Positions 53,201 to 56,200 of a DNA stretch of 64,000 nt are shown here, piece by piece (positions within the stretch are counted from its first letter, which is position 1; every line of letters begins with the position of its first letter). The stretch is from Promethearchaeota archaeon (GTDB taxonomy: Archaea > Asgardarchaeota > Lokiarchaeia > Sigyniarchaeales > SOKP01): assembly GCA_030603385.1 (NCBI GenBank), contig JAUVXW010000011.1, positions 1-64,000 on the forward strand. Reading direction: 5' to 3'. A program made the translations under genes and the position numbers. The notes beneath the pieces were generated by a model that was not told where the DNA came from, did not search any database, and saw only the letters and a program-made list of their open reading frames with translations.

Positions 53201-56200
53201 GTGGTCCATGATAATCTATTGTTATAGGTTGCGAAATCGCATAAGTAGAAACTACTCCTGATATATCAAAAAATTCTCCTACAAAAGTATAATTATCTTG
53301 GGGTAAGACTGTGAAGTTATAGCTTCCTTTGAATTGATTGGAATAGTGGGATGCATTTGAAACTCCAAAATCTATAGAAATAGGATTTGTATAATCATAC
53401 AGACCGTCTAAATCATGTTGCGTTATTAGAGTTATGAAAATTTCTTCATTTTGAGCATCTTTGAAATAAGAAAATTCATATGAAGAAGTATTTAACTTAA
53501 CAGCTTCTATTGAACATATCTCATCTCCTTCAAGTAATTCTGGTAAATCCACAGCAAATCTATTATCAGAAATCACAATTTCAGGGCTATGAGTATAATA
53601 CACTGTAATCTTAAGATGATCAATACGAGCATCTGTAGCAGAAGACCCGGTATAATTTATGTATATATCAATACCAAAATCAGCACTATTGATCTCGGTG
53701 GGAGTCCATGAAGCGCCCCACAAATAGGTTGAATTGCCATAAATGTTATAAATATCATTATCTATAGTGTCCCATGGTGTGGAATTTGCCATATCAACGC
53801 CAACTTGACCACTTATTTTTCTAAGAAAGATCTCCCCATCTGTAATTGCAGAGCCAACAGTAGCCATTCGATCCATTTCAACTTTAATACCATTAATTGT
53901 GGCTCCTATCGGAATATTAAACCCAAAGTTTGCTAATCGTAGCCAATCTGAGCTACTTTCTGTTAAAGTGCTAAATGAAACATAGGTGTAGTCGCCATCT
54001 TGGGTTACTAATTTGCCCAGATCGTTCCAAGGTTCTTGGTCTTGGGGTGATTGAGTATAATAGACTTTAATTTGCACATGATCAATACGCGCATCAGTAT
54101 TAACAGATCCATTATATTCCACGTATAAATCAATACCAAAATCATTACTGTTGATTTCAGTAGCGGCCCAAGAGGTACCCCACAAATCGGTGGGACTTCC
54201 ATATACGTCGTAAACATCGTTATCTACGATATCCCAAGACGTTAAGGTATCTGCGTAATTATCTCCCACTTGACCTGTAGTATTTCTTAAGTATAATTCC
54301 ATATCATGAATTGAATCGCTTACGGTGGATCTTCGATCGAAAAGTACTTCTATACCAGTGATGGTCACTCCGCTGGTAGGGAGGGTGAATCCAAAATTTG
54401 TTAATCGTAACCAATCTGATGTAGTTTCTGTTGATGTGGTAAATGAAACATAAGTATCATCATTGTTTTGAGATGTTGCTTTGGTAGTATCTACCCATTC
54501 TTCGCCTGAAGCATCAGGTAAGGTATAATGTATTTTAATCCGTACTAGGTCTATGTAGGCAGTATTCGTAGTTCCTACATTTTCGACTGCGATATCAATC
54601 CCAAAATTAACATTATTTATATCAGAAACTGACCAGACACCATTCCATAGATCGGTTGAGCCGCCATAAATATCGTAGCCATCAATATCTGTTATATTCC
54701 ACCAAGTACTTGTGGCTTTATCTTCTCCGTTTTGACCGGTTGAATTCCGTAAGAAAATAGAAAAATCCCTAATGGAGCTTCCTGGTGAATCTTGCTTTCT
54801 ATCCATTCCCACTTCGATGCCATCAATTGTGGCTCCTACGGGAATTGCAAAATTAAAGTCTGATAATCGTAACCAGTCCGTTTCCGTACTACTGCTTCCA
54901 CCATTATCTGGTGCGATTGCGATTTGAAAATAAGCAGCACCATCTGAGACACTACAACTAACTGTAGCATCTCCAGAAGTCCCTTGAGAAGCTAAATCTT
55001 TACTGCCAAAGCAACCACTCACATCAGAATTTCCAGAAGTGTCAGTTTGATAGTCATCAACCTCAGTGAATCCAGTTCCTGAGACTTCGAATGGATACCC
55101 ATCACCTCCGTCAAAACTTAACCCATAAAGCACTAAACAATTGTCTACGGTTGTAGTTACGGCTGGAATAACGTGACTATTTGAACTTGACGAAGATTGT
55201 GTAAAGCTTTTAATATTGATTGGGGTTGTATCATCAGCTCCCATAATCCTAAGGTAATATCCCATCCACTCATCTAATCCTGCAGAAGTTACAGTCTCAG
55301 TTGGATTTTCATTCCCATCAGCAATTCGCCAGAAAACAGCAATGTGGGCATCACTGACTCCATCACCTGAAGTACCAACGAAGTTCCAGTTCGCTTTGTT
55401 ATCTGAAAAAGCAATTGATGATGTATCATCGTTCATGACAATAAGCACCAATAAATCACCTACTTCAACTCCAGAAGGTTTACTTAATATTAGGTTTGTT
55501 GAAGGCATTGAGTCACCCTGTTCCGTCCATGATTCTATAATTGGAACACTTTCCTCACTAATTATTATATTAGCTGAAGCATAACTATCATTTTGAGCCA
55601 ATGTATTACCTAGATTTGCCCAATCTATGCTGTTACTTCTGTCTACACTAGAGGCTGTAAACGGAGACAACCAGTTAGTAGTATAGCTACCTCCACCACC
55701 CAGATTTATATTTATATTCGATGTTATTGTTGGCGATTGTGCCTCAGAATCGTCCCCACCTCCTGCGATTCTGTCCGTATTTGTTGTAGTGGATGGTGAT
55801 CCTATATCAGAATCGTTTTGTTCATCGGTATAATTTAGACTTGCAAAATAATCATAATCTACTTGTAATTCAATTATCTTAACTAAATCACCATGAGAGT
55901 TAAAGATTTTTAGTACAGGAGGTAAGTTGTTTACAATATAAGGTATTCTGTGAGAATTATTATATGCATTGGGATTATCAACAAAGCTCATTAAGATATT
56001 ATTGATCTCGCTTGAAATGTTTATAAACAAGTTGGAGATCTCAACTATATCATCAAACGTCGCAGTTGTAACTATGATTATTATTTCTTTCGACGTAATA
56101 AACATAGCATCTTGATATAGCCTAATATCTATAGGAATAAGTGTAAAATCAGATCCCTCAATATCATAAAAAGTCGAATTTAGCTTTATACCGTTGTCTT

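Follow-up and report, generated by a model that had tools for sequence, protein, structure and literature searches.

Putative nesting of a jelly-roll domain within itself in a giant surface protein of a Lokiarchaeia archaeon

We analyzed a 64,000-nucleotide stretch of the genome of a Promethearchaeota archaeon (Asgardarchaeota, Lokiarchaeia; GenBank contig JAUVXW010000011.1, positions 1 to 64,000; hereafter, the window), which contains a giant open reading frame (ORF) of 14,832 residues on the minus strand (19347..63845). Within this ORF, a cassette of 738 residues (2683–3420) appears to be built from a small β-domain inserted repeatedly into itself. We propose the architecture A3[A2[A1[B]]], in which three copies of one domain, module A, are set one inside another, the innermost copy holds a second domain, module B, and the entire nest interrupts the giant ectodomain at a loop or linker; we put the probability of this reading at roughly 0.78. 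A nested arrangement of this kind had been suggested by a sequence-only reading of the window. Its innermost level, A1[B], is now supported by structure prediction, whereas the outer two levels are proposed from comparison of relatives, in which domain counts, co-inheritance and spacing favor them.

All parts of the cassette lie in the one frame, which has no internal stop and in which the codon of residue n starts at window base 63845−3(n−1); orthologous open frames in relatives encode 9,447–20,619 residues. All window coordinates below are on the minus strand. At the start of the cassette are three segments, each of 10 residues and matching the pattern SP-x-T-x-x-N-[IV]-[DE]-R, which begin at residues 2683, 2704 and 2727. 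The first two, here called orphan strands 1 (residues 2683–2692; 55770..55799) and 2 (residues 2704–2713; 55707..55736), are the proposed first strands of the outermost copy A3 and the middle copy A2, respectively; strand 1 is conserved across seven orthologous arrays. The third runs uninterrupted into the beginning of a module-A domain, and this A1 N-terminal piece (residues 2727–2760; 55566..55667) aligns with the start of module-A bodies. It is followed by module B (residues 2761–2986; 54888..55565), the A1 C-terminal piece (residues 2987–3108; 54522..54887), and two bodies that lack a first strand of their own, A2 (residues 3109–3265; 54051..54521) and A3 (residues 3266–3420; 53586..54050). 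The two bodies begin at the 'GEEW' or 'QEPW' position, right after the site of the missing strand, and exactly two spare strands are present upstream. All of the peptides from which three back-to-back first strands and three succeeding module-A bodies had originally been read are thus present, in this order, in a single uninterrupted ORF.

Several lines of evidence bear on these parts. Hidden Markov models (HMMs) built from the protein's own copies detected module A four times and module B twice in the 14,832 residues. A matrix of the 10-residue strand, applied with a score threshold of ≥14, found only four places in the whole protein; all four are among the seeds of the matrix, and no other place scores close. 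An AlphaFold2 (AF2) model of the full segment (741 residues, 55-row alignment) assigned a predicted local distance difference test (pLDDT) score mostly above 90 to module B, the A1 C-terminal piece, and the A2 and A3 bodies. Module B is supported by alignment, the HMM and this model, and the A2 and A3 bodies by alignment, HMM, AF2 and a tree of module-A bodies, in which the A2 body falls into a position-specific clade.

With module B excised, the interrupted A1 aligns with other module-A bodies from end to end. For structural analysis of this innermost level, residues 2716–3112 were modeled with AF2 using an alignment of 58 contiguous module-A domains from public genomes, the rows of which span the gap occupied by module B. 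Rows of stand-alone module B were left out to hold the register of module A, so that module B was covered by four rows, and alignments in which MAFFT placed module-A rows on module B, or used strand 2 instead of strand 3, were discarded. The resulting model has a mean pLDDT of 89.1, with no residue below 50. Strand 3 (model residues 15–19) is assigned as a β-strand by DSSP and lies in a block with a pLDDT of 97, 'ASANI' (model residues 41–45) forms the next strand, and both strands of the A1 N-terminal piece are in blocks with pLDDT values of 91–98.

We compared this model with 48,161 representatives of the PDB. Whole single-domain jelly rolls of the galactose-binding-domain-like or carbohydrate-binding module (CBM) type (CBM4, CBM32 and CBM15) and of the MAM family align with it over 120–150 residues, with a root-mean-square deviation of about 3–4 Å and Z scores of 8–9.8, which are only modestly above the background typical of unmatched models. 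The best match is 4bj0_A (Z 9.8, 132 aligned residues, 3.3 Å), and 44 chains reach Z ≥8. The superpositions span the model range of about 8–391, that is, both A1 pieces around module B, strand 3 included. Because whole jelly rolls align across both pieces, the model shows A1 as a single CBM-like jelly roll that is predicted to be interrupted by module B after 'YASANI', as the sequence-only reading had it, with the SP strand inside the superposed range. Module B lies wholly within the gap of a host whose two pieces are predicted to fold as one domain, one of the features of the recursive-insertion class (A1-B1-C-B2-A2) of a recent survey (PMC13114784). Foldseek searches with both AF2 models were uninformative: the matches, with template modeling (TM) scores of about 0.1–0.2, were to proteins that generically contain several jelly rolls, namely reelin, the PRD1 coat protein, and protoxin domains of Cry and Vip3.

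The proposed outer levels depend on the SP-type segment being a part of module A. Module A is about 165 residues long, with the SP-x-T-x-x-N-[IV]-[DE]-R motif in its first strand. In distant relatives in which module A is contiguous, among them members of Chloroflexota, Patescibacteria, Bacteroidota and DPANN archaea, the domain opens with the same motif or with a wider form, GPN-x-P-x-T, located a few residues before a conserved Trp and often directly after a signal peptide. As contiguous distant copies begin with it, the SP strand is the normal first element of the domain, and comparison with these copies shows that it belongs, by homology, to module A. A reading of the SP-type segments as mere linkers had been named as the outcome that would overturn the nested interpretation; instead, contiguous copies of module A have conserved this segment at their N-terminus, and strand 3 is a confidently predicted β-strand.

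The numbers of strands and bodies were then compared between homologous arrays. In every array complete on both sides, orphan strands are as numerous as strandless bodies, at depths from 1 to 4. Written as strands/bodies, the counts in the window are 1/1 for a single copy, A0, which is described below, and 3/3 for the cassette. Arrays of the 3/3 type are found in G244/P0153, P0003, P0004, P0008 and G253; P0007 has a 2/2 array, G024 has one 4/4 and one 2/2 array, and G233, G269 and P0144 have 1/1 arrays. P0011, which is cut at both ends and has extra variant strands, was excluded from the count. The length of the proposed branch, which the sequence-only reading had suggested comparing among homologs, thus varies from 0 to 4 layers between close relatives, with strand and body counts equal in all complete arrays.

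The types of strands and bodies are also informative. In two-level arrays, the lone orphan strand must belong to the lone strandless body. This strand is closest to the strand beside the innermost one in three- and four-level arrays, with 8–10 of 16 residues identical as against 4–7 for the outer strands, and the only strandless body groups with the body beside the innermost one (tree support 95/97). Strand 2 of the cassette shares its type with this lone strand. Outermost strands also resemble one another between species (up to 11 of 16 residues), and strand 1 has its closest counterparts in those of G244 and G024. The types of strand and body are thus co-inherited in nested order, as would be predicted by nesting and not by a crossed pairing. 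From these patterns, we infer that strand 1 pairs with A3 and strand 2 with A2.

The strand starts are 21–23 residues apart in all arrays, at depths 2, 3 and 4 and in different genomes. Each step comprises a 10-residue strand and a linker of 11–13 residues, which is often Gly-rich. Among the seven orthologs, at 38–60% identity, the motif positions are conserved and the linkers are not. The constancy of the 21–23-residue spacing may reflect a set geometric increment from one nested layer to the next.

The cassette as a whole behaves as one insertion. The ortholog in a congeneric genome, G003 (12,745-residue open frame; locus L014 on contig G003:C7, residues 2095–2374, frame +1), lacks all 738 cassette residues, and its host sequence is continuous at this point. 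The sequences directly upstream (residues 2640–2682; 55800..55928) and downstream (residues 3421–3460; 53466..53585) of the cassette are adjoining in G003, and when joined, the two flanks from the window align to the G003 protein as one high-scoring segment pair (53% identity, E 1e-89). The entire nest therefore enters and leaves its host at a single point, a property by which recursive insertions are recognized (PMC13114784), and this would fit a structure whose two ends meet.

We hypothesize that the cassette arose by the insertion of a complete module A, strand and body together, into the loop that directly follows the first strand of another module A, and that this happened twice. Such repeated insertion would leave three first strands side by side, followed by three bodies in mirror order, and the innermost copy would have been opened one strand later to take module B. 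Since the first strand would cross the sandwich, the loop that follows it should lie at the pole opposite the start of the domain, and each guest would lengthen the resulting arm by one domain. The chain would then run out through the three strands, pass through module B, and return through the three bodies, with module B at the far end of an arm that would carry no tension along the main chain. An arm of this out-and-back geometry may serve as a display stalk, presumably for a tip engaged in adhesion or recognition.

Several observations weigh against nesting and would suit an arrangement resembling beads on a string. In this reading, module B splits A1 but the other two copies are unsplit tandem domains that fold without a first strand, and the two orphan strands are relics of a flexible linker that may be glycosylated. 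The strand segments are rich in Ser and Thr and are flanked by Gly runs, as in flexible linkers. P0016, a metagenome protein of 3,109 residues, has at least 11 head-to-tail copies of module A that repeat about every 138 residues and lack an SP-type first strand, so a module-A body can exist without the strand in some relatives; the N-terminus of this protein is cut by the end of the contig. In the AF2 model of the full segment, which had been proposed as the test of the nested order, residues 1–84, including all three strands, have a pLDDT below 50; strands 1 and 2 were not placed on A3 and A2, and the A2 and A3 bodies were modeled confidently (>90) without them. We rejected this model as proof that the strands are disordered. 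The MAFFT alignment on which it was based is only about three rows deep over the strand region, and the A1 N-terminal piece, which is homologous to well-modeled parts of A2 and A3 and is certainly structured, was likewise left unplaced, yet it was placed well in the model of residues 2716–3112; the low strand values are thus uninformative on disorder. Linker relics would not be expected to keep their motif positions and 21–23-residue spacing in seven orthologs as divergent as these, nor would orphan strands and strandless bodies be expected to rise in number together, from 1 to 4. In addition, strand 3, a homolog of the two orphan strands, is a confident structural strand. On balance, we consider the tandem arrangement unlikely.

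It is less probable still that the strands complete the bodies in an order other than the nested one, whether crosswise (strand 1 with A2 and strand 2 with A3) or in trans with a neighboring molecule. In chaperone-usher pili, an incomplete β-sandwich is completed by a strand from another subunit through donor-strand complementation. A trans pairing in the archaeal protein would resemble such an exchange, and the giant proteins would be joined by it in a mesh at the cell surface. The likeness lies in an incomplete β-sandwich completed by a strand from elsewhere; the difference is that here the numbers of strands and bodies match within one chain, with the strands located upstream in mirror order. 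The free strands are predicted to bind the bodies in trans, though at a weak level. Docking of strands 1 and 2 (54 residues) on the A2 and A3 bodies (312 residues) gave a score of 0.43 (runs 0.64, 0.30 and 0.43), with 0.00 for the best of three controls, contact agreement of at least 84% between the runs, and a partner pLDDT of at least 57. In the calibration of the tool, 58 of 80 solved complexes passed its mark, as did 2 of 110 mismatched pairs; only 7 of the 80 solved complexes, but both of these mismatches, passed it at 0.60 or under. By this calibration, the docking support for a strand-to-body pairing, whether nested or in trans, is weak, which also counts against the nested reading. A mesh would also be in keeping with cryo-tomography of Loki-type Asgard cells, which shows 'complex surface proteins', unordered and with no S-layer (PMC9834061). 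Linkers of 11–13 residues would also allow a crossed path; we dropped linker length as an argument for either order, since both paths are feasible. In contrast, the co-inheritance of strand and body types in nested order disfavors any non-nested pairing, as does the fact that the host sequence tolerates the cassette as one insertion. A crossed order would need rearrangements, whereas each nested level can arise by inserting one contiguous domain. Pairing in cis would lead one to expect equal numbers of strands and bodies per chain, but a trans pairing does not require them. We therefore favor the nested architecture, A3[A2[A1[B]]].

Nesting of this kind is rare but known. The closest parallel is Si3 of the cyanobacterial RNA polymerase β′ subunit, which comprises eight sandwich-barrel hybrid motif (SBHM) domains, four of them assembled from distant chain segments, in a 150-Å arm known from crystal and cryo-EM structures (PMC10895346). 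A 2026 survey of the ECOD database describes Si3 as a six-level recursive insertion, its most complex example, with single-level domain insertion being the common case (PMC13114784). Both A1[B] and A0[B] resemble such single-level insertions, the difference being that in the cassette the inserted unit would again be a host and belong to the same family as its guest. The proposed cassette would share with Si3 the repeated insertion of a small β-domain family into itself, the assembly of several domains from distant parts of the chain, and an elongated arm that enters and leaves the host at one point. Self-nesting of one domain family is thus already documented, and the present case shares its design, not its family. 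The fold is SBHM in Si3, in contrast to the CBM-like jelly roll predicted here, and Si3 is inserted in the trigger loop of an enzyme, RpoC/RpoC2, whereas the host of the cassette is an extracellular archaeal giant protein. The nesting proposed here is regular, always using the loop after strand 1, with a depth of 0–4 between close relatives and an exchangeable tip. Finally, the structures of Si3 have been solved, while the outer levels of the cassette are read from sequence comparison.

Apart from the cassette, the window contains the single copy A0, split into a first strand (residues 1439–1448; 59502..59531) and a body (residues 1671–1823; 58377..58835) by a second module B (residues 1449–1670; 58836..59501), the latter two delineated by alignment and HMM. 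A search of the 3.9-Mb assembly with the A0[B] segment found no copies outside the giant protein. The sequence-only reading had assigned module B the same insertion site in A0 as in the cassette. Module B is indeed inserted into module A in both places, but the site differs: in A0, it follows the first strand, the loop also proposed for the insertions of module A into itself, whereas in the innermost copy of the triple it enters one strand later, after 'YASANI'.

A0[B] is itself surrounded by parts of other domains. The host of both insertions, a putatively membrane-anchored protein with LamG and Ig-like domains, has a LamG site at residues ~1350–2131 (57453–59798) with the order 'FDGxG' (1401), 'SYE' (1420), A0[B], the body of a module C (from 1834), and 'YENFDYV' (1964). 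The last of these opens a match to Laminin_G_3 (PF13385) at residues 1968–2131, which covers profile positions 5–150 of 151 and scores 50.7 bits (cut-off 27.6; E 2.7e-13). The protein also has contiguous 'FDG-xx-DY' versions at residues 8093 and 9445, and we infer that the upstream 'FDGxG' piece is part of the same LamG domain. The order suggests that A0[B] sits inside two further hosts, LamG[C[A0[B]]]. The same order is found in G024 and, in part, in G244, G253 and P0003. At the LamG site of G003, module B is present alone, without module A, in the order FDGxG, B, YEDFDYI.

The tips carried at the common loop differ between relatives: module B in the window cassette, and other modules in P0004 and G024. 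In G253 (L018 on G253:C24, minus frame, residues 1535–2412), three strands and three bodies enclose a tip domain that is itself split by module B. In G024 (L013 on G024:C13, residues 370–1728), four strands and four bodies surround other modules that total about 670 residues. If the apparent outer hosts (LamG, then module C) and the inner guests (module D, split by module B, or other modules) are included, the arrays of G253 and G024 would be nested to seven or more levels. A general rule might be drawn from these cases for the giant surface proteins of this Lokiarchaeial family: recursive insertion of whole domains at two hot-spot loops of a jelly roll would produce arms of 0–4 module-A layers with exchangeable, phage-related tips, in some relatives seven or more levels deep, forming a combinatorial cell-surface recognition system. 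We regard this generalization as tentative and rather doubtful at present.

No Pfam family reached its cut-off for module A or B in searches with the whole protein and with residues 2680–3420 and 1430–1830, and a PDB sequence search with the two modules gave no match at E values up to 1; the similarity of A1 to the CBM and MAM folds is one of predicted structure. In PHROGs, the A0[B] segment (P0002) had no match; distant relatives alone match unnamed families, and the match of P0102 falls outside its module-A copies. Both modules nevertheless belong to large families. A full HMMER scan retrieved 10,251 proteins at E ≤0.001, so that the relatives of modules A and B, families without a Pfam name, number more than 10,000; phages, the candidate phyla radiation (CPR) and DPANN archaea account for many of these. 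Among 400 genomes of the phylum, the two modules were found in the window's own family only (9 of 134 other genomes), and most of these matches sit in open frames of about 9,400–20,600 residues. A search of genome contigs with a single protein returned nothing, but an alignment-based search of the same kind gave related loci. The nearest fragments come from a Loki's Castle sediment metagenome, and module A is also present in other lineages, including Chloroflexota, Patescibacteria, Bacteroidota and DPANN archaea.

Module B often occurs alone, in proteins of about 230–250 residues. In the ESM Atlas, the nearest clusters of both modules are unnamed and contain mostly proteins of tailed phages. 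In Ruegeria phages, a stand-alone homolog of module B is encoded between a 'putative tail protein' gene, which it directly follows, and a gene with a GH19 domain, which begins a short distance downstream, and a homolog of module A is located in a protein annotated as tail tubular protein A. Given these phage tail-linked relatives of both modules, our best guess is that module B at the tip serves in adhesion or recognition.

If the nested architecture is correct, a single domain family has entered its own members time and again, to depths that differ between species of one genus, and the evolution and folding of discontinuous domains could be compared across natural variants. Annotation software built on the assumption that domains are contiguous would mistake proteins of this kind for tandem repeats joined by unusual linkers. 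A Loki-type surface protein would also gain a concrete build, for which we propose a load-bearing chain with rigid side arms and swappable tips. Should the more general rule hold as well, a recognition system of this type would exist in the closest archaeal relatives of eukaryotes, with nesting deeper than the six-level case of the ECOD survey (PMC13114784).

Giant genes in Asgard archaea are on record (PMC8813620). In the giant ORF of the window, inspection by eye revealed a C-terminal tail of about 1,000 residues, in which no domains were detected, beyond hydrophobic segments near residues 13,180–13,240, 13,620–13,660 and 13,790–13,815. At the N-terminal end, basic stretches and several long hydrophobic segments were seen in the first ~1,050 residues. 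Judging from these hydrophobic segments, the giant ectodomain may be anchored at both ends.

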